This document shows, in pieces, positions 647-63,100 of a stretch of 64,000 nucleotides of DNA. This stretch comes from a virus. The DNA lies in the IMG/VR virus record IMGVR_UViG_3300043788_000060, positions 1 to 64,000 of that record; one strand, written 5' to 3'. A model generated the notes under the pieces. It saw only the letters and a list, made by a program, of their open reading frames with translations. It was not told where the DNA came from and searched no databases. The position numbers and the translations under genes are program-made. How positions within the stretch are numbered: position 1 is the first letter of the stretch; each line of letters opens with the position of its first letter.

Positions 647-1456
647 TTATTTCTCCGAAACAGATTTTAAGAATACAGATGGCGCTCCGCTATAGGTTAC
701 CACCAATCTTTGCCGGGCGCGGCTCGCCCCGGTAAACCAGATATTGCGTTCCTCGTCCAGATCAGTTGCTTTTGCGTGGGGCAAAATCCCCTCTGAAACT
801 TGTACGACATGCACTACATCGGCCTCCATGCCTTTGAAACTGTGAATCGTACTTAACATGACGCCCTTCTTGCTCTTGCTGGCAGCAGAGGCTCTCCGCG
901 TATAGTCCAGAAAATCTTTGATCGATCCGTGTTTCCCGGCTAGTTTCACGAGTTCTACAAGGTTGCCGACAGGATCGTTGTCGCCGGAATGATCTTCCTC
1001 TACGGAGTAGTATTCAACGGCCCTCAAGGCAGATATGACTGATTTCAAAGCCTCGGCAGCGTCTAGTGACCTATATCGGCTCAGACTGTGAACGAAGGAT
1101 ACGAAATCCCGGAGTGCGGGCAAATTCTTGATATTCACTAACGAGTCCGGAATTTCAACCAGCATCTTCCAATAGCCGAAATCTTCTGTGTGTCTGGATT
1201 TCATTTCAGCAAGCAGAGCGGATTTAGGCAAGAATTTTGTCGGCCAATATGGAGAATGTAGAGCCCCTAGAATCAACCAATCAGCGGGATAGAGGACGCA
1301 GCCAAGATAACTTAGGCAGGATTTTACTTCCGGCTGCGAAAAGAATCCGGATTTCCCGATGTAGTGGTGAGGGATGTTCTGCTCCGCGAGCGCGGCACCT
1401 ATCGGTAAAAGTGCGCGATTCGTCCTCGCGAGTACACAAATCGTAGGTTTGTCCAT
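647..1456 (-). CDS. UvrD/PcrA-like SF1 helicase, C-terminal half
   Basis: VLARTNR, STIHSFKGMEADVV and EERNIWFTGASRAR match motifs IVa, V and VI. No Walker A. Confidence 0.85.
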   Translation of the reverse strand: MDKPTICVLARTNRALLPIGAALAEQNIPHHYIGKSGFFSQPEVKSCLSYLGCVLYPADWLILGALHSPYWPTKFLPKSALLAEMKSRHTEDFGYWKMLVEIPDSLVNIKNLPALRDFVSFVHSLSRYRSLDAAEALKSVISALRAVEYYSVEEDHSGDNDPVGNLVELVKLAGKHGSIKDFLDYTRRASAASKSKKGVMLSTIHSFKGMEADVVHVVQVSEGILPHAKATDLDEERNIWFTGASRARQRLVVTYSGAPSVFLKSVSEK

Positions 1457-1617
1457 TATTCGGACTCTTTCTCAGGAATCAATCTCACCTTACTGGGGTG
1501 ACCATCCGGCAGCGCGTCGATTCTTGCCTGCATACGCTCCATGCAGCCGGGGCCTTTCTCGACCATGCCGTCCCATTCAATGTAATAGTCGGCGTATTGA
1601 CCGATAACTGGGTTCAT
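1456..1617 (-). CDS. Small hypothetical protein (MNPVIG...KESE)
   Basis: TAATG stop/start coupling at both ends, each inside a copy of the 15-bp repeat. Confidence 0.55.
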   Translation of the reverse strand: MNPVIGQYADYYIEWDGMVEKGPGCMERMQARIDALPDGHPSKVRLIPEKESE

Positions 1618-1799
1618 TATTCGGACTCCGAAAGGTGCCAATCTTGATGGAGATACTTGTTTTGTACCAAAGCGCCGCACACCGGACAAATGTCCGAATA
1701 AAAAGCGTCTCCTTGGGTTCCTATTGTTCCTGCTCTGCCCCACCACTCCGACCGAAGCTGTTCAATTTGTTTATCAGTGAGACGCATCACTCCTCCCAA
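1617..1799 (-). CDS. Small Zn-finger-like hypothetical protein
   Basis: CPVCG...H..WH motif; coupled to its neighbours. Confidence 0.55.
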   Translation of the reverse strand: MGGVMRLTDKQIEQLRSEWWGRAGTIGTQGDAFYSDICPVCGALVQNKYLHQDWHLSESE

Positions 1800-1891
1800 T
1801 CATCGTGATCCATCGCCCACGCAAACACCAGAAAGAAGAACACAATCAGCGCGAACAGGAAATAGGTAGTACCCATGTCGGCGTTGGTCAT
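1787..1891 (-). CDS. Small membrane peptide
   Basis: MTNADMGTTYFLFALIVFFFLVFAWAM, a single hydrophobic helix; coupled to its neighbours. Confidence 0.45.
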   Translation of the reverse strand: MTNADMGTTYFLFALIVFFFLVFAWAMDHDDWEE

Positions 1892-3459: not shown

Positions 3460-3732
3460 TCAGAACGGAATCCATTGGCTGTAACACTCCTCCGAGCAGC
3501 ACGAATCTCGGGTAAAGAACACAAATTTCCGGCAATCCTCGTTCCCGCATCGGTGAACGAAGAACTCTTGATTGCACTGGACCCACCACTTGAAAGCATA
3601 CCACGGGCCTAGCCATGCTTGGTTGGTAGCTATGAAGTCCCCGTGGTAGATATCCGTTCCGCAGCGGTCGCAGGCCGAGTAGTACGGATCGGAACTCTGA
3701 CATCCGAAAAACCTACAGCGAAATCTGTCCAT
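3460..3732 (-). CDS. Cys-rich hypothetical protein
   Basis: Starts MD inside the 15-bp repeat; several CxxC pairs. Confidence 0.55.
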   Translation of the reverse strand: MDRFRCRFFGCQSSDPYYSACDRCGTDIYHGDFIATNQAWLGPWYAFKWWVQCNQEFFVHRCGNEDCRKFVFFTRDSCCSEECYSQWIPF

Positions 3733-3983
3733 TATACGGACTCCAGAGAAAAGTCGAGGGGCCTAGATAGTCTTGGAGAGTTGTCGAAAATCTTCATAAA
3801 TTCCAGCACTTCTTCCGGGGTCTCGACCGAAAAATCCTTGAATCCGACCCGCCACGAAATATGTGTGGGCCCGACATGCGGTCTCTCTAATCCGGCGTCT
3901 CGCATAGCCAAAGCTATCGGGTCCGAGCTACAGGAGCCTTGGAGACCTACGTCGATATGGTGTTGGGTTACTGAGATTTTCAT
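3732..3983 (-). CDS. Hypothetical phage protein
   Basis: Coupled at both ends. Confidence 0.6.
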   Translation of the reverse strand: MKISVTQHHIDVGLQGSCSSDPIALAMRDAGLERPHVGPTHISWRVGFKDFSVETPEEVLEFMKIFDNSPRLSRPLDFSLESV

Positions 3984-4333
3984 TAGAAAGGAATCTCTTC
4001 AGGAACCTGAACCGATTCTACTTTCAGGTCCGGCTCATCCCCACGAAGAACATTTTCCAAATCTCTCTTGCGGGAGTTGGCGGCGTAAGAATCCTCAAAT
4101 GTTTCATTTACCGGCACTCCAGCGATAGAACCTACGACAGCGAATTTTTCCTTGGTTGTAGGAAGTGCTGGAATTTCCACGGCCATAGAGTAGTCCGAAT
4201 AACGGACTCTGACGACGTGGCCGGTCGAGTCAGTAAAGGTTACGGAACGAACCGAAGCATCGCTGCGGTCCACGTCGATGCTGATTCCCTCCAGCACCAA
4301 GTCCTTCTTTGTCTTTGCTTTTGTCCAGTCCAT
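3983..4333 (-). CDS. Hypothetical protein
   Basis: RBS AAGGAG; ends in an SSB-like EEIPF tail. Confidence 0.65.
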   Translation of the reverse strand: MDWTKAKTKKDLVLEGISIDVDRSDASVRSVTFTDSTGHVVRVRYSDYSMAVEIPALPTTKEKFAVVGSIAGVPVNETFEDSYAANSRKRDLENVLRGDEPDLKVESVQVPEEIPF

Positions 4334-5382: not shown

Positions 5383-5580
5383 AAATCTCCTTAGTCCGAA
5401 TAATGGACGGTTAGTTTTCTTGGATACTTTTGATGTTGCTGGTTGAAAACGCTGCTGTTTCTTCAAACTTCTGCCCCGGTCCGGGCCGCGAATAGAACGC
5501 CGTACACCCGCGTTCACAGACAAACTTGTCCGCTTCTACCGGTACCGGCTGTTCCGTGGATTTGAGGTGAACCAAGTAGT

Positions 5581-6153: not shown

Positions 6154-7408
6154 TCTTCGTTACCTCCTTGAGTTTCTCTACATCCAGACCCTCAAGTTCT
6201 CCGAGAGCCTGTGTCCAGTTTCCAACAGTCAGGTCCTTGATTTCCGATTTCTTGCCTACGTTTAGGATGTAGTTCTTCAGTTGGTCGGAAGCTGCGCCTT
6301 TTTCTCTCAAAGCTCGAACTCGGTCGGCGAACGCTTTCTTCTCCTCGGGGTTTGGTGTCGGGTCCAGAGTCTCCACAAACTCAGTGGCAGCTTGTTGGTC
6401 TGGCACAGAAGCTTCTGGCAATACTTCTCCCGGTTTTGGGATATCCGCGTCGGTTATACTCCCGGGAACCTGTCCATTATTCGGACTGGTTTTCGGTTTG
6501 GGCCCGCGCTTCTTTTTCTCGGGCAGCGGAAGTTCGGAGGCGGGTTTAAGGTCCGGAACTGCTGCGAGAGCCTTGTCCTTGGCGGTTTCCTTGGGTACTA
6601 CCTTTAGAGTATCCCCGCTGTGCGCTGGCAGAGTCGCCGGTACTTCATTAACTTGGTACACGGTTTTTGCTTCTCCGGGTCTCGCAGTTTCAGTTCCCAC
6701 TGCTGGGGTTTGGTTTACAGCGGGGACTGGAGGAGGCGGGGAAACGGCCACAGTCGGGGATGCTGGGGTAGCTGGCTCCTCGTTTTCGACCTTGAATTCC
6801 TCGGCGATGTAAAGCCCACCAAGTTCCTCGGGGAATGCTTTACGCAAACTCAACATTTCAGAGCACTTGGCCAATTGTTCCGGGCCCCGGCGCGTCCACA
6901 TATCGTTCAGTCGGACTTCGTTCTTTTCTTTGTCGAAATACGTCGAAGCGTATGCGTCGAACCGGGCGATGCTCGAAACTGGCTGGCTGAAATCCTTCCG
7001 GTACACGGTGGTGCGAACCGCCCACGGTTCCCGGGGTAGCGCGGATTGTCCGGGTTTCAACGGAAGCTGGGGGAGGGGAATTTCGGACACAAGGGAGGGT
7101 GATCCATCCGCGTCGAGATAGATATACTGTTCCGGGGCCTGCCCGTTGTAGACTTTGGTCCGCTCTGCAATCAGACGAGAGGCGTCGATAGTCGTAATGA
7201 AGATGATCTTGGAAATCTTCACCTTGGCCCGAACCGCTTCGTCCCACTCGGACGACTGGCGCAAATTGAAAACTACGTGCTTGCCCGGGAGAAGTCCCCT
7301 TATCTGGCAAAAAGTACGGCAGACATCCTGCTGTTCTTTCGTGAAACCTTTGCAGAACTCTGCCGCAAAAGACCCCCACTGCGCGTCGGTTAATTCAAGC
7401 TGACTCAT
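6131..7408 (-). CDS. Bet/RecT-family single-strand annealing protein with Pro-rich C-terminal extension
   Basis: TTIDASRLIAERT..YNG and W...PEQLAKCSEMLSLRKAFPEELGGLY..EE resemble phage Bet motifs. Confidence 0.85.
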   Translation of the reverse strand: MSQLELTDAQWGSFAAEFCKGFTKEQQDVCRTFCQIRGLLPGKHVVFNLRQSSEWDEAVRAKVKISKIIFITTIDASRLIAERTKVYNGQAPEQYIYLDADGSPSLVSEIPLPQLPLKPGQSALPREPWAVRTTVYRKDFSQPVSSIARFDAYASTYFDKEKNEVRLNDMWTRRGPEQLAKCSEMLSLRKAFPEELGGLYIAEEFKVENEEPATPASPTVAVSPPPPVPAVNQTPAVGTETARPGEAKTVYQVNEVPATLPAHSGDTLKVVPKETAKDKALAAVPDLKPASELPLPEKKKRGPKPKTSPNNGQVPGSITDADIPKPGEVLPEASVPDQQAATEFVETLDPTPNPEEKKAFADRVRALREKGAASDQLKNYILNVGKKSEIKDLTVGNWTQALGELEGLDVEKLKEVTKNAPMPAF

Positions 7409-8005: not shown

Positions 8006-8974
8006 TTAACCTTCTCGAACCTGTCGCGCAGCTTCAGCAAGAGTTGCGCTTGCTATCGCTTTCACAGCTTTGTACAAGAGACCTACACATGATCCGTAAG
8101 CCACACCATCAGCGAATCCGGTCTGATCCATCCCGACAAGGCAAGCCGCTATCGCATCTGCTCTCGGGCCCACCGGTAGCTTAACCAGTTCCGACCTGAA
8201 AAATGCGGACAGGACCGAAATCATCCCCCGGGAATCGGCGGTTTTTACCTGCGCCAGAAATCCTGATGCCTTCGCCCAGTTTCCGTTCAGGACTGCCCCG
8301 CAGATGTCACGGTATAGGGGCTCATGTTCGGAACCATGAACCGCGTCTTCAAGAGACACCCCGGCGAGGTATTGGTCGAGGACCCCGAGGATTTCCCGAG
8401 GGGCAGTTATATCATTTCGGAGCAGAAATTCTGTGATTAAGGTGGCATCATGTTGTTTTAATTTGCCACTGCTAGCCCGATCCACAAGGTCCCAAATCTG
8501 AGCCTTGTTAAGCGGAAAAAGCCGGAACGTCGCTGGTTTCGCCCGGGACAAAATCGCCGGAGAAATCTTGTCCTCTTCGTCAGTAGTTATCAGCCAGACT
8601 GCCGGGCATTTCTCCATTGTATCTTTAACTGCGTCTTGTGCCGCCAAAGTCCAGCGATGGAACTCGTTGACAATAAACACCCTTGGCCGTCCATTAAACG
8701 GACGGCTTTGAGCGATTTCGGACAGTTCCCGAGCGTCCTCGACTTTGTTCTGGACCGACCCGTTTATTTCGTGGATATCCCCGTCTTCGCCTGCTACAAG
8801 TTTGGCCACGATTTGGGCGAAGGTAGTTTTGCCCGTGCCCGGGGGTCCGTAGAATAGGAAGACGTTCGGCCAATTGTTTTTCTCGGCGAAGGACTTAATC
8901 GCTTTTTTCGCGGATTCGGCCCCGATAATTTGATCTAGCGAAGTCGGGCGCAGGTCTAGGGCGAGGTTACTCAC
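8006..8974 (-). CDS. Clamp-loader/DnaX-like AAA+ ATPase
   Basis: LRPTSLDQIIG, GPPGTGKT, degenerate Walker B FIVNEFH, AILSR sensor motif. Confidence 0.85.
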   Translation of the reverse strand: MSNLALDLRPTSLDQIIGAESAKKAIKSFAEKNNWPNVFLFYGPPGTGKTTFAQIVAKLVAGEDGDIHEINGSVQNKVEDARELSEIAQSRPFNGRPRVFIVNEFHRWTLAAQDAVKDTMEKCPAVWLITTDEEDKISPAILSRAKPATFRLFPLNKAQIWDLVDRASSGKLKQHDATLITEFLLRNDITAPREILGVLDQYLAGVSLEDAVHGSEHEPLYRDICGAVLNGNWAKASGFLAQVKTADSRGMISVLSAFFRSELVKLPVGPRADAIAACLVGMDQTGFADGVAYGSCVGLLYKAVKAIASATLAEAARQVREG

Positions 8975-9618
8975 TTTTCACCGTCCATTTTTCGGACAAC
9001 TTGTCCCACCACTTATTCCAGAAATAATACCGCGTATACGCAATTACATTTCTGGTCTTTTTGGTGATCTTGTAATCTTTTCCATCACCTATGCGGATGA
9101 CACTACCGACTTTCCAGTCGGGTTGAAATTCGATTTCGAGAGGCATATCATCCTTTCTTATTCTGAGACCGGCTGCGGAAAAGTTCAAGGAAACAGGCAG
9201 CTAGAGATAACGGAAAAATTTTTGCAACAGCCCACCAAAAAGAATCGTTGTGCGATATATTTGCTGCGGTGATCGCCAAAAACCACGTTGCTACCCACCT
9301 CGGTTTGTCCATTTAGTCCTCCCTCAACGCAAGCTCGTCTTTGCGTCTGATTTTCTCGATGTATTGGGGCGCGGCCCCGGTTTGAATCAACATCTCGGCC
9401 TCGTATGCCTGCTTTTCGAGCAGCCGCTTGCGGAGCCGAACCACCTGTTTCTTGAGCAATTTGATTTGTTCAGTGTCGTTCATGTTTTACCGCCAGCTTA
9501 AAACATCCGGCAGTCGCCAGTATAACACAAGGCAGCGCGTACCCGGGGTGGTTTTGAAAAGCCAGCGAAAGTCCTAAAGCGGCCAGAACCCAAACTGCCA
9601 GCCCATATTGCCAGTCCT

Positions 9619-10432: not shown

Positions 10433-10779
10433 CGGACTCCTTTCTCGGCTCCGCTGTAGTTCCCAGCAAATTTCCGTCCGGATCAAAACACCCGGACAGA
10501 TTCCCGAACTTGTGCTTGTACGGGTGGTAGACAAACGGTTCCGGGGATTTCCGGACCGTGTTTTCGACGATTTCGGTTTGGCAGTGTTGGCAGATCATAT
10601 TTACTCCACACTCGGAGGTTCGTCTGAGTTTCCCAAAATCCAATCCAGAGTCTCGGCAATTCCCTGTTCGTATGTCATGCCGGGATAATTCGACGGATCA
10701 GTCTCATACACTTTTTCTCGAAAATCTGCCACTTCTTGGGGTTTGCGCTTGAAAATAGCCATAGTTTTCCTTTCGTCCA

Positions 10780-11172
10780 TTATTCGGACAGTTGTTTGAT
10801 GTGTTTGTCGTAGGCGTCCCGAATCAACTTGATTAACTCCGGGTCGCGGTATCTGAAATCATCGGGTATGTTTAGTACCACGATAGGTTTGGGTTCTTCG
10901 AGCAGGTTTTTGATTTCGGTGGCTTGTTTTTGGCTCATGCAAACGATCTCATCTGCCCATTCGAGCAATACCTTGTCCACAGGAATCAAAGCAAATTCTT
11001 TGGTCAGGCCAGCCGCCCGTGTATTGAAATTGTAGGGCTCCTGCGATAGCACAAACGCGGCGGTCGGCGACCGCAAAAGCCCGGCAGAGCACACGCACAA
11101 AACCCGCTTGTATTCGCCTTGATATTTGTTCCCGCAGTTGGCGAGACGGTTCATCAGAAATGGATCACTCAC
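10780..11172 (-). CDS. Low-molecular-weight phosphotyrosine phosphatase/arsenate reductase-fold protein
   Basis: VLCVCSAGLLRSPTA (CX5RS P-loop), WADEIVCM, IPDDF. Start probably GTG 11172 after GGAGG. Confidence 0.85.
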   Translation of the reverse strand: MSDPFLMNRLANCGNKYQGEYKRVLCVCSAGLLRSPTAAFVLSQEPYNFNTRAAGLTKEFALIPVDKVLLEWADEIVCMSQKQATEIKNLLEEPKPIVVLNIPDDFRYRDPELIKLIRDAYDKHIKQLSE

Positions 11173-11534: not shown

Positions 11535-13667
11535 CTATTTGCGATATATTTCTGATTCAAACCCATCGGCCCCGAGCGGAAAAGCGTCTCCGCACCAGTC
11601 AGGAGCGGTTGTCATGCACTCACATAGTTCTTTCAGGCCAAGTCCGGAATCGATGGGCACCAGCGTCACGATTTCATCGTAAGTGTGTCCAACTATTTCA
11701 AACCCCATCTTATCAGCGAGTTTCATGCCATGAACAAGTATATCACGGCTCACGGCCTGATCGGCGTTTTCTACCAGATGTCCGCCAAAAGTCTTGGTTT
11801 CCATCCAGACTTTGGTTTGCTGGTCCTTGGCTTTGTACCAGATTACGTCATTTTCGTATTCTTGCTCTTTCCAAACTCTCTTTTCCTTCCGAACACGGGG
11901 GTCGATGTAATGCAGGGACCGGCCCGAGGGTAACAACATTTCGAGTACCTTGTCTCCCGTGCATTTGAAGGACAAAATTGGGTCTAAAATCGGACGGTTG
12001 ATGCGCTCGAAATACTCGCGGTCGCGGTCAGTATGGGGACAGCCCACTCCTGCGAATTCTCCGGGGTGCCGAATGGCATAAACAGCCGCCCGTTCCATGT
12101 CCTTCCACAACCGCTTGACTTCAGGGTAGGACTCGCGGAAAACTTCGACGGCATATTTGGCCTCATCATAAGTCATTTCGACACCCATGCGCCGCGCGTA
12201 AGCCTGCAACCCATCGTAAAGGGGGTTGCCCATGTCGTCGTATCGCAGCCTGTCTGGAGGCATTCCGGGCCCGAGCCCATATCCCGCGCCGAGCACAGGG
12301 GATTTGCAGACGTTGCGCTTGGTTTTGTTGCCTGCCTCAAATTCGGCCAGCAGGTCTTCGTACTTTTCGTTGTACATCCGGACGGCAAAATCCAAATAGG
12401 GATCACGGCCTTCACGGAATACTTTGAGAATCGCTTCGCATCTGGCGAGGTAGCCCAGCCCTCTGTTTTCGATTGCATTTAAGTCCGCAACCACAAACTT
12501 TTTGCCTTCCGGGGCGCGAAACGCGGATCGCTGGACGGACGCAGCTACTTCGAGCGGCTTGCCAAACTCCCTCACCACTCCGTCGTAGTCCATTTTTCGG
12601 ACAAGATCAACCGCGAGTTCCAGCCTTTTTTCCACTTCCTTTGTGGACTTAAATAAATTGCCCATGTTGACGCCGTGCGCCGCCCATCGGCCCGTATGAG
12701 CCCCATAGTAGGTGTATTGGTAGCGTAGCCTCCCGTCAAGCGCAGTCATATCCGCAAGGGCCGTGTATTTTGACACAGAGGATTTGGAAGTTTGCGTCCG
12801 GATTTCGATTACTTCTTTGGCCAGATCGGTAAGACCTCCCTCGGCCAAAGCTCGGGCAACGAAATCCTTATTCAAGCTCGAAAATCCATAGCCCTGTGTT
12901 TGCAGCCAGCCGAGCATTTGGTTTCGACTGTTGGGATTTTGAAGCCCAGTTAGCTCTTTGAGTCGGGCGGTGAGTGGCTCTAGTTCCTTGAAGACCAGCC
13001 CTCGGGCCCCGTCTACTGTGAGTCTACAAACGGGCCACCCGGTGGAGTTAATTTTGTTATCGAGGAACCATGTTTCCCATTCGGAATCGGGTAGCGGAAA
13101 TCTCCGCATCTTTTTCGCTGCCGCCCGCTCTGCAATCACGTCCTGCTTGCAATACTCGCAGAATAATTCCCAGTCTTTTGGGTGAGTCCTCCAGTCGCAG
13201 AAAGTTGCAGGAGCTATACCGAACAGCGTTTCATATCCGCCTTCGTCTTCCGGCTCACAGAAGAGTTTAATCAGCCGGTCGCCGTCTTCGATCTTCGCAC
13301 TTTCCTTTAGTCCAAGCAATCGCCCAGCCTCGGCCAGATCGCCGGGCAGAGAGAGCGCCCGAGCCATGCACATCGGATCGCGGAACTCCTCAATTGGCTT
13401 GGAGATTTTAAGGACACATTCGGATATTACGCGCTCGAATGTTGCGTTCCAGCACCACGCTTGAACAAACGGGTCGGACAGCGCGTCTTCGAGTTCAGCC
13501 GGGATTTTCGGATCGAGGTGTGGTTGCCAGAGCTTGGGCGATTTGTCGCCGAAGGCGTAAGCAGCCAGAAGGACCTCGGTCGATTTGTCGTGGGCGTAAT
13601 TGTCCAAGCCGCGCTCGTCAAGTGACAGTACGGACCTTGTTTCGTAGTCCAACCAAAGTTTGTCCAT
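11535..13667 (-). CDS. Family A DNA polymerase with 3'-5' exonuclease
   Basis: LDYET (ExoI), motif A VADLNAIENR, motif B RNVCKSPVLGAGYG, motif C HTYDEIV. Confidence 0.93.
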   Translation of the reverse strand: MDKLWLDYETRSVLSLDERGLDNYAHDKSTEVLLAAYAFGDKSPKLWQPHLDPKIPAELEDALSDPFVQAWCWNATFERVISECVLKISKPIEEFRDPMCMARALSLPGDLAEAGRLLGLKESAKIEDGDRLIKLFCEPEDEGGYETLFGIAPATFCDWRTHPKDWELFCEYCKQDVIAERAAAKKMRRFPLPDSEWETWFLDNKINSTGWPVCRLTVDGARGLVFKELEPLTARLKELTGLQNPNSRNQMLGWLQTQGYGFSSLNKDFVARALAEGGLTDLAKEVIEIRTQTSKSSVSKYTALADMTALDGRLRYQYTYYGAHTGRWAAHGVNMGNLFKSTKEVEKRLELAVDLVRKMDYDGVVREFGKPLEVAASVQRSAFRAPEGKKFVVADLNAIENRGLGYLARCEAILKVFREGRDPYLDFAVRMYNEKYEDLLAEFEAGNKTKRNVCKSPVLGAGYGLGPGMPPDRLRYDDMGNPLYDGLQAYARRMGVEMTYDEAKYAVEVFRESYPEVKRLWKDMERAAVYAIRHPGEFAGVGCPHTDRDREYFERINRPILDPILSFKCTGDKVLEMLLPSGRSLHYIDPRVRKEKRVWKEQEYENDVIWYKAKDQQTKVWMETKTFGGHLVENADQAVSRDILVHGMKLADKMGFEIVGHTYDEIVTLVPIDSGLGLKELCECMTTAPDWCGDAFPLGADGFESEIYRK

Positions 13668-14029: not shown

Positions 14030-14890
14030 AACACAAAGCAGACGATCCCGCCCACCGGGATAAAATACCCGCCACTATCGCCTATCACACACCCGATAAA
14101 CCCAGCTAGTAATCCCCCGGGCACACAGAGGAACCAGAATCGACGGGTGTCGGATTTCTCGGCCTTTTGCCGGTCGGGTTCGGGGTCAGGCTGTTGGTAA
14201 AAGCAGTTGTCAAATTGTTGGCGATTCATGCTCATATCTGTTCCCGTCCTTCTGACCAAGCCAACAACTCCTCAATCGATTGCGGTTCGGGAACATCTGC
14301 GTTATAATCCGGGTTGTCACAACCGCACGCTGGCCAATAAGGAACCCAAGGATTCAATGGTTTGTGCGTGTGGCCACACGGGCCAATTGGTACACTCATA
14401 GCTCCTCCCCCGCGCTCAACAAAGCGGCTTCTGCGATTTCTCGGTCGGACAACCACCCATCTTTGCAAATCATCCGCAGAGCCTCGACCAGTTTCTCGTA
14501 GTCCGAATAATGGACAAACTGGAGTTGCTCTTTCTCACTTACGCACATACCGTGCGGCGTCCATCCCCATCGTTTCATCTCATTCTCCACAAAGTCTTCG
14601 CTCCACACCCCGCCCAACACATAACTTGAACCGGAACAGCGACAATAAACGCTGCCAGCAGAAATATCCCCACAATCGGACCCGAGCTACGTTTTCTCAT
14701 CTCGCCTCTGGTGGATACAAAATTTTGTGGACTTCAAAGAATTTTTCGGCGTCAGTCTGCCATCTTTCGAGCAGGGTTTCCGGTCGCTTGTCCTCAAAGT
14801 TGTAGAAGGCGTGCATACTTCGTAACCCCTGCTCGTTGATAGCCAGTTGGTTGCAGAATTCGTGAACGAAGGTGGTAGCGTAGTCGTCCA

Positions 14891-15184
14891 TTAGTCGGAC
14901 GCCTTGCGTGTGCGAATTTCCTCGATAATCTTCTGTTCTTCCTTGAGACCTTCGTTGAATTCCGGCCTTGTGATGAAAATACCGAGTGTTAGACCGAGCC
15001 AAGTGACTTCGGTCCCAAGATATATCCAAGGATTGGAAGCTACGATTAACCCCGGAACCAAATCAAACGCCCATTGCTTTTTCGTTTGCTCATTTACAAT
15101 GAATTGAAGTCCTACCCATTTGAAGGCGAGAATGGCGTTCACTTTGCCGGGATTAAATTTCGGGCGTTTCGGAATCCAAATCAT
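14891..15184 (-). CDS. Hypothetical protein
   Basis: ATGA overlap with the integrase stop. Confidence 0.55.
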   Translation of the reverse strand: MIWIPKRPKFNPGKVNAILAFKWVGLQFIVNEQTKKQWAFDLVPGLIVASNPWIYLGTEVTWLGLTLGIFITRPEFNEGLKEEQKIIEEIRTRKASD

Positions 15185-16266
15185 ACTTCCTCCATTATAC
15201 CACGAATTCGTTCTTGCTGCCCGTTTGTCCGCTTGGCATAGTGTTTTTCAATTGTAGTAGTAGTGTCTCCCAAAAGTTGGGCAACATCGAATAGCGTACA
15301 TCCCTTGGCGAGCAGATAGCACGCTCGATAATGCCGGAACCTATGAGGATGGCAATTTGCAATCCCAGCTTTTTCTCCCCAACTTCGAACCATCTGGTAC
15401 AGTTTGTGCGGCACCATGCCGGGGAATATTCTGTCCTCCCCTTCGATCCGGAAGTCGTCCATTATTCGGATAAACTCCCGGTTCATCGGAATTTCAACGC
15501 GCTTACCTCGTTTCGCAGTAAGCACCCGCAAGGTCTTGGTCTGAAAATCTACCGACCCCCAACGCAAGCTGGCAACATCGGAGCAGCGCAGGCCGGTATG
15601 CTTGAAAACCGCGAACACCGTTTTTTCTAACGCCGGTTTTTCGACCGCTTCAAGCGCCGACATTTCTTCATCCGTAAACGGCTGGACCGCTTCTTCGACC
15701 GCCGGAATTTTCGGCTTGTACTTGAGTGGGGTTTTCGCCATCCATCCTTCTTCAACCGCAAAGTCAAATAACGCAGACAGCGCAACCGTGTCCGTAATTA
15801 TTCCCCGTCCTGATCCGCCTTTGGCCAAAATCGATTCCTTGCGCCAGAGCAAATGAGATTCTACTGCCTCGGGGGTGATCTCAACAACGTTACCCAGTCC
15901 AGTTTCTATCAGCCGGTCAAAGAACAGCTTGATTACTCTTTCATACTCTCGCCGGGTTCGGACCCCGATCTGTCCAAGTTTCTCGCGCCGTGAGGTATGA
16001 TCCGTAAACCGGGTTTCGAGTTCTGTTAGCTTCATAGGATCGTCAGGCAACACACCTTGTGTCAGCCGTTTGAAGCTGCTTCCCGGCAGAGCCGTCCTCA
16101 ATTCAGCCCATACGTGACTTTTGGGACCGTCCGCTAAAGCATATTGGACTCTGGTTCCCAACCGCTCGGCGGATTTTGGGTCTTTGACCCCCAAGGAGCA
16201 ACGGACACGTCTGCCACTGAGCAGAGTGTCAAGGTGGTATGTCGATCCTCGTTTGGTAAGGGTCAC
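15181..16266 (-). CDS. Tyrosine recombinase/integrase
   Basis: HTGLRCSDV (R), HPHRFRH (HxxR), LLGD...KHYA (Y); N-terminal arm-like segment. Confidence 0.92.
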   Translation of the reverse strand: MTLTKRGSTYHLDTLLSGRRVRCSLGVKDPKSAERLGTRVQYALADGPKSHVWAELRTALPGSSFKRLTQGVLPDDPMKLTELETRFTDHTSRREKLGQIGVRTRREYERVIKLFFDRLIETGLGNVVEITPEAVESHLLWRKESILAKGGSGRGIITDTVALSALFDFAVEEGWMAKTPLKYKPKIPAVEEAVQPFTDEEMSALEAVEKPALEKTVFAVFKHTGLRCSDVASLRWGSVDFQTKTLRVLTAKRGKRVEIPMNREFIRIMDDFRIEGEDRIFPGMVPHKLYQMVRSWGEKAGIANCHPHRFRHYRACYLLAKGCTLFDVAQLLGDTTTTIEKHYAKRTNGQQERIRGIMEEV

Positions 16267-28752: not shown

Positions 28753-28754
28753 GT

Positions 28755-37522: not shown

Positions 37523-37541
37523 ATCGTCCGAATAGTGGACT

Positions 37542-49853: not shown

Positions 49854-51251
49854 GCTACGAAACTTGGTTTCACGGCACGAACGAGGATTCGGCTCGTCTA
49901 ATTATTCAAACCGGATTTCAACCCGGAACATATTTTGCAAAACACATGGAAGACGCAATCATATTTGGCGGTCCCTGCGTTTTCTGGATTAGAGTAGAAT
50001 GGGAGCGAAAGAGTTTGGACGGATGGCAGCAGATAAGTTCTAACCATATTCCATCCAAGGCAATTGTAGGATTTTTCCTTGGAGAAGGTTGGTTCGAAGA
50101 AGCCAAGGAGGCCGCATGATCGCCTGTTGCGGGAGCCGGGCTATTGCGGATTATTGCAAACGGTGCGGTCGGAATTTAACGGCTCTTGGGCAATACCGAG
50201 ATTATGTTCACTATGTCCCCGGAACTCAGACCCCATGTTTGACCATCGAAGAAGCCCTCGGAATGACCGAAGAGGAATTTGACGAGATAATAAATCCTCT
50301 TCAAGAAGAACTCGCAAGAAAGCTATCCGAAACCATTGACCTTTTAGTAAAGGATTTCACCTAATGCCCGTCTCCCCAGCATCCTCCAGTACCGGCCTGA
50401 CAACTACCACAGCGGTTTTCTACGGCGCGAAAAAGAAACCCAAGCCGAGGAAGAAGCCAAAGAAGAAATGACGGCGCTTTGGATAGTCGGGATAAGTTTA
50501 GGATGCCTTCTTGTAGCCACAATTGCAGCGGCGGTCGTCATCGGCATTGCTAAACAAGCTATCAACTATTTCATTGGTCGCTCTCGATGACGACGATCTA
50601 GTAGCCGACGGAACCCTGTCCGAAGAAGAACTGAAAGAAGCGGTCGAGAAATTCAGGCGGCTGCGGTCGGCGCACTCCGAAGTTTGGGAAGAAGAGGAGT
50701 CCGATGTTTAAAAAGGTCCGCCTGAGCCTGCCTGCCTATTATTGCGTTCTTGGACAGTTCCCGCATTGTGACCAAAGAATTCTTCACGCCCGGGGCGAGT
50801 GCCAATATTGTGATAAGCACCCAGACTGGCAAGCTCTTCGGGAGGCGTGGGGAATATCCTTTACTGGATACGAACCGGAAGACAAAGAATTGCCCTGTCC
50901 GGCGGATTATGCACGAGGAGATTCTCATAAGCTCTGGTATGGAAACGTAGCAGCGAAGGAGTCCGAATAATGGACAAATTCAACCCATTTCGCAAGCTGG
51001 TCCCAAAGTCCAACCGAGTTGTCGGCGCAGTCAAAGCAATCCCGCTGTGGTTCCGGCCTAACATCAAACCGTGGGGTTACTACTCCGGAAGATTGGAAAG
51101 TCGTCCGGATTTCCGGAGACCGAACAGGGTACATCGAATCGAGATTTGTGCAGTAGTTTTTTACTGCATTTGCAGTAAAATGCCCGAGAGGGCCAAAACC
51201 AACTGACTTTAATTCTGAGCACCTAGTCAGTGTGCTGTTCAAGGAGAACAC

Positions 51252-53005: not shown

Positions 53006-53038
53006 ATTTCGTCCAGATAATGGACTAGGGAGAAAACG

Positions 53039-54521: not shown

Positions 54522-55179
54522 CCATGCGCCGTCTACTGTTTGACCTTTCGCTTCCGTTCGTTATCTGTTGGGGATTACTTATCTGGTTTATCGCCAACTG
54601 CGGAAATGGGGGCGATTGGCAAACATGGATGGAAGACCATCTTTCGTAGTTTGCGCGGGGAGCCTAAATACACCGGCCAAGACTCTGAGAGGGCCGGACG
54701 CGCAAAGTTTTAATGTCCGAATAATGGACAGCAGGTTGCCTTTCACAGAGGAGTCGAACCGCTGGTTTACTAGCCCTAATCTGGCGGCAAGGTTACTTTA
54801 ACAGGTTGTTCCAAGGAGCAGGACTCGCCGCAGACGATCTCTACGGAGGAGCAGTTTCTGAAGCGCAACCGGGCAACGTCATCGTAATATCCGAAACGAA
54901 TCGCGACCTGCCCTTTTTACTTCCATGCCAAATCATATCAAAAATCTCGGTATATGTGCTCTTTGCAGACAAGAGGTATTGTCAGTAATGGACCTAAAGG
55001 AGCATGTCATGGGAGATGTTAATAAAAATGGTTTGATTGGCTGGTCCGAAGGGAAAGATTTATCTCCTCTTTGAAAGCAACTTTGGTGCAGCAAATGTAT
55101 TGCTCGCATCCACCCACGGATATGTATCTGTCCACATTGCAAAGCCGCCAAACTATCCGAATAATGGACTAAGGAACTC

Positions 55180-56989: not shown

Positions 56990-57361
56990 AGTAACCGAGT
57001 TTCCGGCCTCGACAAAACCGGATTGTCCGAATAATGGACTACGGAGTCAAAATGTCAGTTGTTATTAAGATTCTCCATGAACGGGACTGGAACGGAAGAG
57101 AGTACGCGGAAGCGGCTATCAGGGACCCCAGACTTACGTCTGACGCGATTTCCGGAGTCATCGGTTACGTTGTCGCGGCCCTTGTCAAACATCCTTCGGA
57201 TGGGGCAGTTACCCTTGAAAGGGCTATCGCTGTAACCGCCGATAACTCCGAAGACAATGAACTCGCCGAGTCAGTCGTCAAAACCATCGAACGCAAACTG
57301 AACGAGGCTTTTCCTGACCCAAATCAACAGGAAGTTCCCGAAGTCTCGCTCTGGGTACCCG

Positions 57362-59837: not shown

Positions 59838-60136
59838 TGGGAACAGCAACTACCGGGTTTCATCGCTTTAGTAACGTCACTGCTCGGGCTCCATACTCAA
59901 CTACCCAAGAGGTGGTTCCCGGGGCTACTATTTATGTAACTTTGACGACGACCGGAGCCGGGGCTGTTATTTATTCGGACCCGGGACTGTCTGTAGTTAT
60001 ACCGGGGTCGTTGATTACTGCCGACCCCTCGGGGTGGTACGAATATTATATTCCCCTGAATTACAACGTGACAGAAACCATTACCTCGGTTTCCGGATTG
60101 AATTTTACGATCACGAACATCGTGTCTAACACATAG
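59837..60136 (+). CDS. Small head-binding-like domain protein, paralogous to the N-terminus of the next gene
   Basis: ATTG.HR...VVP.A.I.VT.T.TG..A.IYSDP.LS...TAD..G.Y.YY.PLNY.VTETIT is shared. Confidence 0.7.
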   Translation: MGTATTGFHRFSNVTARAPYSTTQEVVPGATIYVTLTTTGAGAVIYSDPGLSVVIPGSLITADPSGWYEYYIPLNYNVTETITSVSGLNFTITNIVSNT

Positions 60137-60143
60137 GATTGGA

Positions 60144-63100
60144 ATGAAGAAATTTCTTCTCATCGTCGCTTTGTTCCTCGCAATCTGTCCATTATCCGGA
60201 CTGAATGCTCAAGCCACGACCGGCTATCATCGGGTAAATCAGGTGCTGTCCCGAGCCTCTACCGGGATCAACGCTCAGGTGGTCCCCAACGCCAGAATCA
60301 CGGTTACCCAAACGGCTACCGGAACTGCGGCAACTATCTATTCCGACCCCCTGTTGTCCAACCTTATAACTCCGTCTGTAGTCACTGCCGATAACGCAGG
60401 GAACTATTCATATTATGTCCCTCTGAACTATTGTGTAACAGAAACAATCACTGCCCCCGGTCAGGGGACTCAGATAATCCCTAACATCTGTTCAAACAGC
60501 GCCAGCAGCAGTACCTTTCCTTCCCCTCCGTCATTTTCTGTACAATTCGCAAACAGCGGGTCATCGGCTTTTGATAGTGATTCGACTATTAACGTCACTC
60601 CCTCTACTCATACCCTTACTTCTCCAACGGTACAACCGGGTCAGGATGTTACCCAGAGTTCTCCTGTTATAGACATTCGCAACACTGCCTTTGCGGGCGG
60701 TGCGGTGATCGACGGCCACACCGATATTAGCCCCGCAGTGTGCGCCGCCCGTGAAAGTTGGAGCGCCTCACATCCGGGTCAAAGTCAGACAATTTTATTG
60801 GCCTGCGGCGGCGGTGGTTCATCCGCTTCTTGCTGGTGGGCTAACCCTTTGGCGAGTTGTTCTGGAAGCATAGGCAGTGATTTTAAGTACGTCCTGCAAG
60901 GCACTCTCAATGTAGGTACCACGTTGTCCGTTGGTGCGGGTGGGGCTTCTATAGGCGCGTCAGAGTTCGATGGGGAATCGGGAGAGTTTGGAACTCAATT
61001 CCAAGGCACTTTGGCGACAGCAGTAGTCAACGGTCCTCTATGTTTTGGTACGCTCGGCACCGCAATCACAACGATCAACACCCCGGTCACGGTGACGCCG
61101 ACATTTTCCGGAACGACTATCGGCGGTGCATGTTCGATTGCAAATCTTCCGGTAAATTCCGCGCTGACTATGCGCGGCATGGAAACGTCAGCGGCTACGG
61201 GTACGCGGTCTTCAACTTCACTCAGCGGAAGCGGTGGGTACGCGGTACTGACCTTATCTTCTGCCGTGCGTATTTCGGCGGGGTCGAACATTCAGGTAAC
61301 TGGCTGCTCAGACACAGCGTTCAATACCGGTACTCTGGGAACGCTGTCACAAAGCGTAGTCGCCACTCCGGATTATCCCAATCAGCAACTCGGCTATTAC
61401 ATCTCGACATCTGGTACCGGGTCATCAACAGGATGCACGGTGAAGGGGGCCAGTGACGACCGTTTTGAGACAGAGCTAGTGCAGTGCTCAAACGGCACGG
61501 CTAATCCCGGATACTCCTGCGGCGCGGGACAGATCACTTTCGTAAACGCCCATACATACGCATCGACTGACCAGTGGGGCGAAGTGGCGATGGAAAGCCC
61601 GTTCAACGACGGGGCCGGTGGAACTGGGTTGGTAATGAAGCGGATTCTAGTCCAAGGTTCCGCAGGAGCAGAATTCTTCTCCGATGAGTCCATCCATGAG
61701 ACGTTCGAGGATGATGGGTTTATTGCCTTTGGGACGCCCACTTCGATTCCTTTCGAGGCAGATTACCCGCAGAACCTCACAGTCCATTCATCGGCTTTTA
61801 ATTCGGTCAACAATGGGTATAGCACTTGCCAATCCGGTAACTGTGGGAACGTGAGTTACCCGTTCGGATTTCGCTGTACCATGATCCCGCCCAGTATCAG
61901 TTCTTATCAGGCGGGAACGTGTAACAACTCGAAAATTGATACTTACTCTCAGGTTCGCGGTGGAATCAAAGTCGATACCAACGGATTCTCTCTGAACTTC
62001 GGTATTGAGGCAGCAGCCCCGGAACTTGACCGTGTTTTAATCGAGGAGCCTGTATGGGGTGGAATTACTTTCGATACCCGAGATGGAGTCACAGGCCCGG
62101 TTTACATCAAGGATAGCTACTTACAGGATTTCGTTTCTGGGAGCACCGATCAGGCTTTTATTGCTGCGGAAAATCCGGGGGGCACTGGATATATTTTTGA
62201 GAACAATACCTACTCAGAAAATCCTTTTCTCGTCAATAAATATTGGTATAGTCCAGCAATCAGTGTGCGCGGAAACATCTCTGATCAGCTTTATACTCCG
62301 TGGCCTTATCAAGGGATAGGGGCTGTAGGGCTATTTGAGGACAATGGATTTCTCAAGGGTGAAGTTGAAGCTCCCGCATTTACTGGTTTCGAGAGTTTGC
62401 CCTTCGGTTCGCTCGCTGTAAATCAGTCGCCTGCATCTTGGACTTCGGCTTGCAGCACGAACTGTACGGTAACAACGGTTCAAGACCCCACAGGCGGTCA
62501 GAACGGCGCTAATATCGCCTCAAACTCAACCACTCATCAAACGATCCTGATTAGCATACAATCCGTATCCACCTACCCCGGCGATCAGTTTATCTTTATG
62601 GATTGGTTGCGTCCCGGTACCGGACAACTCATACCTAATGACTGGCGAGGTAACTATCCATTCCAACTCCAAACTTTGGGCACGGATACCTTTCAGAACA
62701 ACGGATGCGAAAGCGGCATTGGGTCAAATACAGCCTGCGCTACTAATTACGGACTTCCTATGTTGAACGACGACTGGGCACCTTACGTGGCTACCGCCAC
62801 TATCGGGACAGGCGAGTCAGCAGCGCACTTCATGGAGTTTAATCTCGAAAGCGGCCAATGCACGAATGGTTCGATCCTCAACTGCGGAACACAGCATTTC
62901 TGCCCGCAGTGGGCTTTTGTACCGGGGCCTAATAACCCCTCCTACACAGGTGTTTCTACGTTCGACGTGCAAATCGCCCGCATGTACAACTATCACGGTT
63001 GTGCGCCGGGCGGGTTACTTGCCGGACAGGTGGCGACTAATCAAACTGTTGTAGCCGCCCAGATTATCGATTCAGGAACCCCATCCAGCACAGCCCCGCT

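Follow-up and report, generated by a model that had tools for sequence, protein, structure and literature searches.

One 15-base, half-palindromic DNA word is dispersed throughout the genome of an uncultured soil phage, with 63 copies on a contig of 110 kb. The array that these copies form exists, is under selection at the level of the DNA, is nearly neutral in orientation, evolves in concert in related phages and coincides with breakpoints between them. In our judgement the chances are about even that the sites are docking points for a putative phage DNA-binding protein, which would organise or regulate the phage chromosome, and that they double as crossover points. Since no cognate binding protein was identified, the term 'operator-like' stands here for what we infer, namely that a protein binds, which protein it is and what its binding does.

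Distribution of the sites in the window

The window is the whole stretch of DNA that was analysed, 64,000 nucleotides in length. It holds 40 copies of GTCCGAATAATGGAC with up to two mismatches, as against 0.17 expected from shuffled sequences, in which the largest value was 2; the original prediction had put the number at about 38. All of the copies that it located by coordinate are present, but the one at 47638 has three mismatches and matches GTCC-N7-GGAC. The general form of the motif is GTCC-RRAWAAT-GGAC, nearly invariant at 10 positions, and it was correctly foreseen that the flanks do not consistently extend the stem, there being no conserved flanking positions. The density is about one site per 1.3-1.7 kb and the coefficient of variation (CV) of the spacing is 0.64-0.85, with the closest pair at least 112 bp apart, a minimum that is also explained by there being at most one site per gene boundary. 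Sites occur irrespective of gene structure and are enriched 3-4 fold in intergenic DNA, such that ~45% of them lie in the intergenic 10-20% of the genome. The sites in the window, together with the tyrosine recombinase gene, are as follows (SD, Shine-Dalgarno sequence).

1451..1465 (-), exact site; its TAA closes the upstream ORF and its ATG starts the next
1612..1626 (-), site with GAAC arm; stop/start junction
3727..3741 (-), stop/start junction
4193..4207 (+), antisense site within a CDS
5394..5408 (+), antisense, intergenic; 3-4 relatives have a site at the same place
6472..6486 (-), in RecT-like gene, SPNNG reading; 3 relatives have a site at the same codons
7598..7612 (+), antisense, intergenic
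8689..8703 (-), in clamp-loader gene
8983..8997 (-), clamp-loader start codon 8 nt downstream
10775..10789 (-), TAA stop of upstream ORF, then SD and start 12 nt downstream
12588..12602 (-), in DNA polymerase gene, VRKMD; G002 and G004 have a site at the same codons
13662..13676 (-), stop of upstream ORF and DNA polymerase start codon; kept in 3 relatives
14501..14515 (+), antisense site
14886..14900 (-), stop/start junction
15181..16266 (-), gene for the clade-conserved tyrosine recombinase, a candidate reader in one of the competing explanations
15457..15471 (-), site in tyrosine recombinase gene
17221..17235 (-), small-ORF junction
17979..17993 (-), adjoins SD on its 5' side; start codon 12 nt downstream
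19898..19912 (-), P4 stem-loop of HDV-like ribozyme at 19884..19955 (-)
20721..20735 (-), stop/start junction
21677..21691 (+), in reverse orientation, capping one helix of type II hammerhead ribozyme at 21633..21701 (-)
22503..22517 (+), antisense, intergenic
22977..22991 (-), in the divergent inter-arm region
26248..26262 (+), stop codon before, start codon 9 nt downstream
27917..27931 (+), in Ro60 gene
31679..31693 (+), flanked by tRNA-Gly and tRNA-Thr
33415..33429 (+), tRNA gene directly downstream
34811..34825 (+), intergenic, past the tRNA cluster
36422..36436 (+), stop codon 4 nt earlier
37526..37540 (+), start codon 1 nt later
38833..38847 (+), large terminase start 4 nt later; place also occupied in G002, G004 and L001
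41171..41185 (+), in a CDS, NPNNG reading; G001, G002 and G004 have a site at the same codons
43858..43872 (+), portal gene stop 2 nt earlier
45230..45244 (+), its TAA is the stop of the upstream ORF and its ATG begins an ORF
47638..47652 (+), site GTCCAGAAAATGGAC within a weak group I intron match
48526..48540 (+), capsid gene region, flanked by two group I intron matches
50961..50975 (+), stop/start junction; GAAGGA directly upstream
53011..53025 (+), adjoins SD on its 5' side; start codon 13 nt downstream
54715..54729 (+), intergenic
55155..55169 (+), adjoins SD on its 5' side; start codon 10 nt downstream
57025..57039 (+), adjoins SD on its 5' side; start codon 12 nt downstream
60187..60201 (-), antisense, codons 15-19 of 2295-aa fibre gene; place occupied in 4/4 relatives, at nucleotide level in G001, G002 and G004

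The motif contains TAATG, and ribosome-binding sequences frequently lie against it or overlap it. Its proposed use as a stop/start junction holds at 1451, 3727, 13662, 14886, 20721, 45230 and 50961, where its TAA ends one ORF and its ATG starts another; at 10775 and 57025, for which the same had been proposed, translation could begin equally well 12 nt downstream, behind a Shine-Dalgarno sequence, or at the ATG of the motif itself. Across five genomes a stop codon, a start codon or both come from the motif at 42 of 355 sites, and about 20 sites have the start codon within them. Of the co-oriented sites at junctions or in intergenic DNA, 45 stop 8-17 nt short of a start codon, which is likewise the preferred place of antisense intergenic sites. 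Copies within coding sequences had been placed in different frames, and were found in two sense frames (giving VRIMD and PNNG readings) as well as in antisense. Those placed between tRNAs are also there. Of the two assigned to group I introns, the copy at 47638 falls within a weak match, but that at 48526 lies between two intron matches, and the overlap claimed between the 7598 copy and the -35 region of a promoter was not reproduced by a consensus scan.

Conservation, orientation and the DNA-level reading

Relatives carry from 21 to about 80 copies each, in variants of their own that include GGAA arms. Within two mismatches of the G000 word there are 29-43 copies in each and none of a reversed control pattern, under GTCC-N7-GGAC there are 53-76 sites each, and one relative has a perfect 14-bp palindrome, TTCCATTAATGGAA, in 31 copies in 62 kb. 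When loci were retrieved by the exact 15-mer, ~84 of 108 matched G000-G004 by blastn; cellular genomes gave only single and scattered matches, and no prophage was seen. In the sequences compared, the array is a hallmark of the clade and goes with the early/replication module rather than the structural one. G006 has the structural module in common (portal 56% identical), but has neither the early/replication module nor a dense array.

In-gene sites tend to stay in place, with 38 of 65 aligned site-relative pairs (58%) keeping a site within 6 nt as against 0.41% of random positions. Centres are nearer to other sites of the same genome (mean distance 1.46) than to their own orthologs (1.61), and in 28 of 38 cases the centre was nearer to the modal centre of its own genome. 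Each genome has its own centre even at the cost of protein change (VRIMD, IQKMD, VHKMD, VQVMD), and the modal centres of G001 and G002 have A at position 8, with which the TAA stop is absent.

An earlier count had 31 of 38 copies oriented with transcription, and by measurement 33 of 41 window sites run in the direction of the genes around them; for G000 the co-oriented share is 77%. Over five genomes, co-orientation is 67% (237/355) compared with 58-62% expected from the A-richness of the sense strand alone, and the bias is mostly compositional. The pattern of orientation across regions differs among genomes, relatives do not preserve the bias of a given region, and sites at orthologous intergenic positions can point in different directions. 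An analogy with mycobacteriophage stoperators, which rests on orientation with transcription, is therefore unsupported, and no evidence of lysogeny or silencing was found for the silencing system that had been proposed.

The antisense sites, which make up one third of all, equal the sense sites in information profile and positional conservation, and for two of them (60187 and 78399) the orthologous place holds a site in all four relatives. The stem does not covary: with C at position 11, position 5 is A in seven cases and G in four, and G1/A15 combinations occur, GTCC...GGAA copies being common in the GGAA-arm subclade and the outer pair often broken. Because antisense copies are conserved like sense copies and covariation is lacking, a double-stranded DNA site is favoured over an RNA hairpin, as the original prediction had it.

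We regard as unlikely an element acting in RNA, a transcribed small hairpin with a 4-5 bp stem that would be read by a protein or the ribosome in the processing or stability of polycistronic mRNA or in translational coupling through TAATG. The folding energy of the motif (-3.4 to -5.7 kcal/mol), the sense-orientation P4 hairpin of the HDV-like ribozyme, the stop and start codons and the pre-start positions counted above and the 77% co-orientation in G000 are consistent with such a hairpin. Against it, the stem is weak, compensatory changes are absent, with A5/C11 and G1/A15 both present, the bias in orientation comes close to what composition predicts and varies among relatives, the antisense third is identical in profile and equally conserved in position, and the modal centres of G001 and G002 have lost the TAA stop. 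TAATG, the overlap with ribosome-binding sequences and the stem-loop in two ribozymes nevertheless leave room for an RNA-level role of the sense copies.

Possible readers and competing explanations

As a docking array, the 15-bp element would be a double-stranded DNA recognition site for a sequence-specific protein, repeated genome-wide. The unit read would be an inverted pair of AATGGA(C/A) half-sites, with a strict right half and a left half that has decayed in most genomes to (G)TCC and a run of purines. The early/replication module probably encodes the reader, whose specificity would drift along with the sites; this would account for the different centres preferred by individual genomes. 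The function of the array would most likely be docking for chromosome organisation or regulation, e.g. compaction, roadblocks or shut-off, while junction sites could supply the stop codon, the post-Shine-Dalgarno spacer and the start codon. As the same 15 bp is located at many gene junctions, it may double as a crossover point for gene gain, loss or swap. Two features count against the docking-site reading: the strongly asymmetric centre is unusual for the site of a homodimer, and the difference in spacer between lineages (14 vs 15 bp) is more readily accommodated by a hairpin than by a rigid dimer.

Pfam revealed no ParB_N, Fis-type HTH, Cro/CI, RHH or AbrB fold among the phage proteins, the ParB N-terminal (CTPase) domain was detectable in no genome examined, and the absence of a recognisable repressor, first noted for the window, extends to the rest of the contig, in which none was found on searching. 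The early/replication module encodes a sigma factor, a tyrosine recombinase and a 236-aa protein (contig 96370-97080), the last of which tracks the array and is a candidate for the reader. An unbiased structure search with this protein gave a ParB-like match (Z 7.1) interleaved with unrelated helical proteins (Z 6.2-6.7), and in that search the fold similarity does not rise above background. On a second look at Foldseek's own hits the ten best were all ParB/Spo0J/Noc DNA-binding domains (Z 6.8-8.0), and a protein atlas placed it near weak ParB-HTH and DUF3102 neighbours. Ro60 was considered as a reader and rejected.

Of the homology breakpoints between close relatives, 8.7% lie no more than 10 nt from a site, compared with 1.3% at random, an association that is confounded with gene boundaries. 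L036 has a 1.86-kb insert between two direct site copies, both of which align to a single site in G003. Recombination joints, which had been offered as an alternative, have real support in these observations. That a clade-conserved tyrosine recombinase inserts, excises or swaps gene cassettes at the sites in integron-like fashion is, all the same, no more probable than the hairpin. The recombinase is in every complete or near-complete array-bearing genome, the geometry is that of two inverted arms of 4-5 bp separated by an asymmetric spacer of 7 bp, strand exchange would require a uniform spacer such as each genome has, and sites are found at none of 13 junctions with conserved adjacency but commonly at gene-content boundaries. 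However, the conserved arms are only 4-5 bp each with flanks that are not conserved, whereas the known binding elements of this recombinase family are 9-13 bp. With some 60 active sites facing either way, the genome would be expected to become scrambled, yet G000 and G001 agree in the gene order of the replication arm, and many sites are fixed at the same codons of essential genes, where cassette exchange makes little sense. The 15-bp identity could equally be microhomology for the phage RecT-like protein and nuclease.

A shade less probable is the recruitment of a host DNA-bending protein of Fis-like geometry, with the differences between genomes reflecting differences between hosts. The motif, mainly in its position-5 A variants, fits the 15-bp Fis consensus GnnYAnnnnnTRnnC (PMC10380432), its centre is AT-rich and bounded by Y-R steps, and there is no recognisable phage-encoded reader. 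A palindromic 15-mer would, however, fit so degenerate a consensus by chance in ~3-6% of cases by our estimate, the specificity of the motif is far above that of Fis sites, and it is the early module of the phage that the array follows, not the structural one. The hosts, moreover, are likely to be Acidobacteriota, in which we know of no Fis-like site.

We think it quite improbable that the centre and right arm (NAWAAT-GGAC) form a -10/discriminator-like element, either a promoter on the model of the T4 late promoters, which are -10-only, or a sigma-dependent pause site. A sigma factor of 166 aa is conserved along with the array, the clamp and clamp loader of the phage are T4-like, many sites lie directly upstream of ribosome-binding sites, and the centre resembles TATAAT with a G-rich discriminator after it. 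Yet the antisense third of the sites is conserved to the same degree, ~20 sites have the start codon inside the motif and thus upstream of any possible transcription start, common G004 variants lose the A equivalent to -11, no -35 element or other flank is conserved, and separate, ordinary extended -10 promoters (TGTGGTATAATG) are present. Least probable of all are priming or loading sites for a DnaG-DnaB type primase-helicase at about Okazaki-fragment spacing, for which the distances and CV given above, the independence from gene structure, a primase-helicase that tracks the array and the 5'-GTC (the T7 primase trinucleotide) that begins each strand of the site can be cited, but nothing requires 15 bp when known primase sites are 3-5 nt, exact codon-level conservation is unexpected, GTC is missing from one strand in GGAA-arm lineages, and the minimum spacing follows equally from at most one site per gene boundary.

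Comparison with known repeat systems

The arrays of the ParB family (Noc NBS, KorB operators, parS) are 13-16 bp palindromes present in tens per replicon and read by a dimeric HTH protein, and it is there that the 236-aa protein has its best structural matches. However, ParB_N is detectable in none of the genomes, the fold match is not above background in the unbiased search, and the present site is asymmetric in most genomes. Fis sites share the 15-bp length, G/C ends, Y-R steps at positions 4-5 and 11-12 and an AT-rich centre (PMC10380432), but are highly degenerate, whereas the present motif is nearly invariant at 10 positions and the phages encode no Fis-type HTH. The PeSL cassettes of T4-type phages are described as composite promoter-terminator motifs (PMC2839356, PMC4122927), and they resemble the array as repeated short sequences that border small variable genes and are crossover points for modular shuffling; the present element is instead a bare 15-mer without conserved flanks and lies also inside essential genes.

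The stoperators of Cluster A mycobacteriophages likewise number tens of 13-15 bp sites on both genome arms, many at gene junctions, and according to the summary in PMC4351075 they are asymmetric, oriented with transcription and bound by the known immunity repressor of temperate phages. The present arms, by contrast, are palindromic, the orientation is near-neutral, and searches for a repressor and a prophage found neither.

Of the known systems, the closest is a dyad repeat of 17 bp in mycobacteriophages of Cluster O, TGTTCGGNNNCCGAACA, of which more than 30 copies run through the genome (PMC4351075). These are intergenic apart from about one third in genes, have an asymmetric centre (TTT or AAA) and show no meaningful orientation relative to transcription; no lysogens were obtained, the function of the repeat was not explained, and one gene lies between direct repeats of the motif where relatives have a single copy (PMC4351075). 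Both are short dispersed dyad words with mixed intergenic and in-gene copies, an asymmetric centre and near-neutral orientation, and the gene between direct repeats is the same pattern as the insert in L036 relative to G003. The sequence and the phages are, however, unrelated to those of the present array, whose arms are only 4-5 bp around a strongly asymmetric centre of 5-7 bp. The present motif also embeds TAATG, used as a stop/start junction, and its array adds codon-level positional conservation across deep divergence together with concerted, genome-specific change of the centre.

The repeat array and the phages that carry it

The window-wide, operator-like repeat of the original prediction is real, as GTCCGAATAATGGAC occurs 40 times in the window at ≤2 mismatches against 0.17 copies expected, and 63 times in the contig from which the window is taken (G000). 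A looser definition of the site gives 65 oriented sites in the contig, 41 of them in the window. Information content is nil at all positions flanking the site, which is therefore a free-standing 15-mer. Four relatives (G001-G004), all ~100-kb contigs whose large terminases have 52-71% identity to the G000 enzyme, carry 29-43 copies per genome within two mismatches of the G000 word, with none for the reversed control pattern. Across the five genomes there are 53-76 sites of the form GTCC-N7-GGAC per genome, with the consensus GTCC-R-R-A-W-A-A-T-GGAC. The exact 15-mer retrieved 108 viral loci, ~84 of which match G000-G004 by blastn, the others having a single copy as expected by chance, and among the matches listed in cellular genomes it was found as single copies that are scattered taxonomically. 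The motif is characteristic of a phage clade.

Variants of the word were found in further relatives. The complete genome G007 has 21 copies of GTCC-RGAAAAT-GGAC, G008 has (T/G)TCC-AGATAAT-GGAA and G009 has the perfect palindrome TTCCATTAATGGAA, with 31 copies in 62 kb. What stays constant is thus two AATGGA(C/A) half-sites in inverted arrangement, of which the right is strict and the left has decayed in most genomes. One relative, G006 (IMGVR_UViG_3300021405_000009, loci L215-L219; 98 kb, 59% G+C), has the structural module in common with G000 (portal 56% identical); homologs of the replication and transcription genes were not found in it, there is essentially no array, and a whole module seems to have been swapped. 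Just one relative is in culture, Tunturiibacter phage Tunturi_3 (PP885686.1, locus L240; portal 31% identical), whose host is an acidobacterium from Finnish soil and which has no array in the first 50 kb of its genome. There are hints that the clade infects Acidobacteriota. A portal protein search of cellular genomes, which reaches close relatives only, found no relative, and no prophage copy was seen either there or among the 15-mer matches listed.

G000 itself is phage-like, with 110,256 bp, of which the window is the first 64 kb, and 51% G+C. The early and replication genes are on a minus-strand arm running from ~23.5 kb down to 1 and continuing from 110 kb down to 88 kb, while Ro60, ~31 tRNAs and the packaging, head, tail and fibre genes are on a plus-strand arm from 23.9 to 88.1 kb. 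On the minus strand a 166-aa sigma factor (contig 95018-95518; Sigma70 region 4, 6e-11) is abutted at the downstream end of its gene by a 133-aa gene (contig 94616-95017), with a sliding-clamp-like protein at contig 97077-98132 and a clamp loader at 8006-8974 in the window, a layout that recalls T4 late transcription. Also encoded there is a MazZ-like dATP/dGTP diphosphohydrolase N-terminal domain (contig 88161-88529); PurZ (adenylosuccinate synthetase-like) was not found and G000 is probably not a 2-aminoadenine genome. On the plus strand the Ro60 gene (TROVE and vWA domains; 27400-28752) is followed by a weak YrlA-like match (28800-28856), the region 28751-29085 having a tRNA-like element by ARAGORN and GGTTACTT and TCGCTTGTTCC common to three modules. 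The tRNA cluster (28751-34746; ~31 genes covering most amino acids) has an HNH endonuclease gene just upstream (26771-27337) and a T5orf172/MUG113 (GIY-YIG-like) gene within it (30836-31354). Three group I intron matches (47511-47687, 48324-48502 and 48585-48771; 47.6, 20.8 and 20.5 bits, each short of the gathering score of 50) sit in the capsid gene region, where the protein pieces are 83-96% identical to relatives, and are followed by a GIY-YIG gene (49074-49853). There are also two giant genes, one of 2295 aa (60144-63998 in the window, continuing to contig 67031) that is conserved in relatives only in short stretches, and one of 2322 aa (contig 81126-88094) that matches only PHROG families of unknown function.

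Conservation, orientation and form of the site

The standout features of the array are the codon-level conservation of positions, the concerted, genome-specific centres and the built-in stop/start junction. About 45% of sites are intergenic compared with 10-20% of each genome, and the copies inside CDSs comprise 99 in sense and 62 in antisense orientation out of 355 sites in the five genomes. None of the genomes has two sites less than 112 bp apart (gap CV 0.64-0.85), whereas an estimated ~5 pairs per genome would be closer under random placement; this may come partly from there being at most one site per gene boundary. When G000 sites inside genes were compared with aligned orthologs (65 site-relative pairs), the relative had a site within 6 nt in 38 pairs, against 0.41% at random positions. 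Gene-relative orientation was retained in 35 of these 38, and the pairs match codon for codon.

The variable bases between the arms change together within a genome, the centre being GAAT in G000, AGAA in G001, ATAA in G002, AGAT in G003 and GGAT in G004. In 28 of the 38 pairs the orthologous site follows the centre of its own genome, with seven the opposite and three ties, and the mean centre distance is 1.46 to non-orthologous sites of the same genome compared with 1.61 to a site's own orthologs. These changes alter the protein, so that one site is read as VRIMD, IQKMD, VHKMD, VQVMD and VRIMD in the five genomes. Substitution, and not insertion, accounts for both the gain and the decay of sites. 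Such concerted change calls for a reader, a protein recognising the site, with a specificity that drifts alongside the sites, or else for a process that needs identical centres.

The original prediction had likened the array to stoperators that silence in an orientation-dependent manner, and this is not sustained. Although 77% of sites in G000 and 67% (237/355) over the five genomes are co-oriented with genes, composition alone predicts 58-62%, because the sense strand and the motif centre are both A-rich, and the regional pattern, an all-sense run at 26 to 57 kb, is confined to G000 and absent in the relatives. The position-by-position profile of antisense sites is that of sense sites, antisense intergenic sites favour 8-17 nt before a start codon as other sites do, and all four relatives have a site at the positions orthologous to the antisense copies at 60187 and 78399.

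The inverted GTCC/GGAC arms are near-invariant, and two sites do form stem-loops in ribozymes: one, in sense orientation, makes up the P4 hairpin of an HDV-like ribozyme, and the other, reversed, caps a helix of a hammerhead. Three self-cleaving ribozymes, all above Rfam gathering thresholds, were found within 2 kb among small early ORFs:

19884-19955, minus strand: HDV-like ribozyme, 48.7 bits, using a site as stem-loop
21352-21406, minus strand: twister-P5 ribozyme, 61.9 bits
21633-21701, minus strand: type II hammerhead ribozyme, 42.5 bits, using a site as stem-loop

These stem-loops are places where a palindromic DNA site is most easily tolerated. A structured RNA would be expected to show compensatory base-pair changes, of which there are none; the inner pairs never vary, and C at position 11 goes with A5 in seven cases and G5 in four. 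A G.U pair at positions 5/11, giving a boxB-like 5-bp stem and pentaloop, was rejected when larger samples gave no covariation. In the GGAA-arm lineage GTCC is often paired with GGAA (G1 with A15), which would break the closing pair, and a third of all sites are antisense and equally conserved. The orientation neutrality, antisense conservation, lack of covariation and broken closing pair together favour recognition on double-stranded DNA over an RNA hairpin, and the original reading of a double-stranded DNA site is supported in part.

Gene exchange and candidate readers

A stop codon, a start codon or both are supplied by the motif at 42 of the 355 sites. At several junctions an upstream GGA and the first G of the motif make GGAG 8 nt before the motif's ATG, which enables the word to serve as a complete coupling junction. 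Junctions with conserved adjacency in G000 had a site in 0 of 13 cases compared with 23-26% of other junctions, and per relative a site was found at 9% of conserved adjacencies compared with 30% of junctions with an ortholog for one neighbour only, a contrast that is confounded because tightly overlapping genes leave no space for a site. In the comparison that the original prediction proposed, homology breakpoints in relatives coincide with the motif: in loci with 78-99% identity to a reference genome, 8.7% of the internal breakpoints lay no more than 10 nt from a site, compared with 1.3% at random, with some events counted repeatedly. The cleanest case of exchange is between G003, with a single site at 87690, and the viral locus L036, where direct copies at 11258 and 13135 surround a 1.86-kb insert; homology on the left flank stops at the first copy and that on the right begins again from the second, and both copies align to 87690. 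The same pattern, with flanking direct repeat copies, was described for Corndog gene 14 (PMC4351075). Crossovers thus do occur at the sites, and may be either what the sites are for or a by-product of common 15-bp identity.

One way in which crossovers could be their purpose is that the tyrosine recombinase (15181-16266, minus strand) acts on the site in the manner of integron attC recombination. The asymmetric spacer RRAWAAT has 7 bp, within the 6-8 bp of such core sites, and the recombinase is encoded nearby; PF00589 is found in G000, G007 and G008, and there are orthologs in G001-G004. The G007 gene was missed by tblastn and detected by the Pfam profile, so that on phyletic grounds the recombinase stays in contention. 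However, conservation extends over just 4-5 bp in each arm and the flanks are uninformative, the binding elements known for such recombinases being ~9-13 bp, and gene order is stable. The earlier suggestion of recombination joints is supported in part, by the breakpoints and the insert between direct copies, and is weakened by the short arms and stable gene order.

The genes that track the array encode a DnaG-DnaB primase-helicase, DNA polymerase, clamp loader, endonuclease VII, PD-(D/E)XK nuclease, the 166-aa sigma factor, the tyrosine recombinase and proteins of 236 and 83 aa; uncharacterised proteins of 197 and 133 aa are also counted among the array-tracking products of G000. Since G006 lacks both the early/replication genes and the array, that module is probably where the reader is encoded. 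For the 236-aa protein, whose gene lies beyond the window at contig 96370-97080, the model was moderate (pLDDT 72.6). When Foldseek's own hits were examined a second time, the top 10 were all ParB/Spo0J/Noc DNA-binding domains (Z 6.8-8.0, rmsd 3.0-4.5 Å, 96-117 residues), and an unbiased search placed Spo0J first at Z 7.1, with unrelated helical proteins at Z 6.2-6.7. Its neighbours in a protein atlas, ParB-HTH/DUF1016 and DUF3102, are weak only. The predicted fold makes this protein a lead, not an assignment, as a ParB/Noc-like reader, and residue-to-motif covariation has only two independent GGAA-arm lineages on which to draw.

It is also possible that a host DNA-bending protein such as Fis reads the site. 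The 15-bp Fis consensus GnnYAnnnnnTRnnC (PMC10380432) agrees with the motif at G1, C4, A5 (51%; G otherwise), T11, G12 and C15, and it is this fit that makes such a protein possible. A phage-encoded Fis-type protein was rejected, with no HTH_8 domain in the five phage genomes.

It is unlikely that the phage sigma factor uses the motif as a promoter or pause signal, as antisense sites are conserved equally, some start codons fall inside the motif, there is no -35 element and ordinary extended -10 promoters (TGTGGTATAATG) are separate from it. Matches to the sigma-70-type consensus at the sites are at chance level. TGTGGTATAATG is enriched upstream of genes in the intergenic regions of G000, G002, G003 and G004, and TTGACA-containing words are enriched in G001 and G004; both are likely to be host-type early promoters distinct from the 15-mer. 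N4-style hairpin promoters served by a giant virion RNA polymerase found no support, the 2322-aa protein having no polymerase signature.

Other candidate readers fared no better. The 83-aa core protein gave a confident model (pLDDT 94) with no fold match and no DNA-binding fold. The ParB N-terminal (CTP-binding) domain PF02195 is absent in G000-G004, the control genomes being positive, and no Cro/CI, RHH or AbrB fold was found among 88 small proteins. The original statement that no repressor is recognisable thus agrees with these surveys, as the HTH, RHH and ParB genes it proposed to look for were found neither by PF02195 or HTH_8 in the five genomes nor by fold among the 88 small proteins. 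Ro60 was considered as the motif contains GUCCGA, Ro60 makes contact with GGUCCGA in Y RNA (PMC4201824) and G000 encodes Ro60 adjoining a weak YrlA match; it was rejected, the TROVE domain being present in G000 (7e-15) but in none of G001-G004, and GUCCGA not being conserved in relatives.

A possible site-reader system and its relation to known repeats

A tentative and rather improbable interpretation of the whole is that lytic soil phages run a private, co-evolving system of sites and a phage-encoded reader which organises or silences the chromosome. The reader, for which the ParB/Noc-like 236-aa protein is one possibility, would be a DNA-binding protein that docks at ~60 fixed positions and so organises or silences the phage chromosome. 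The 15-bp word would serve as a standard junction at which genes could be swapped with stop codon, ribosome-site spacing and start codon intact, and divergence of reader specificity between sister phages might also limit their recombination. The array adds unusually strong evolutionary evidence that dispersed phage dyad repeats are functional, with sites held at the same codons although the proteins are only ~50% identical, and with centres that shift together at an amino-acid cost. It also provides natural specificity variants (GGAC vs GGAA arms, 15 vs 14 bp, five centres), which with the short list of candidate readers make a binding or specificity-swap experiment feasible without phage culture. 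Should gene exchange also be guided by the sites, they would offer a simple mechanism behind phage mosaicism.

Comparison with described systems sets the array apart from several of them. It is unlike ParB/Noc/KorB arrays in that PF02195 is absent here. The PeSL cassettes of T4-type phages are described as combining a promoter with a stem-loop terminator, whereas the flanks here are unconserved and promoter matches are at chance. The Cluster A stoperators are described as asymmetric, non-palindromic 13-14 bp elements with an orientation tied to transcription, read by the immunity repressor of a temperate phage; here the arms are inverted, the site of one relative is a perfect palindrome, and 118 of 355 sites (33%) are antisense. 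As to a repressor and a temperate habit, a tyrosine recombinase is encoded, and the three kinds of repressor fold sought were not found among the 88 small proteins. The Cluster O mycobacteriophages have a 17-bp dyad repeat with >30 copies, ~1/3 of them in genes, and an asymmetric centre without orientation meaning; no lysogens were obtained and the function was not established (PMC4351075). The present array is similar in being a dyad word with >30 copies genome-wide, in combining intergenic copies with a sizeable share in genes, in having an asymmetric centre with no meaningful orientation, and in gene gain or loss bounded by direct copies, as between L036 and G003. The Cluster O dyad repeat is the closest described case, the likeness being one of kind and not that of a homologous family.
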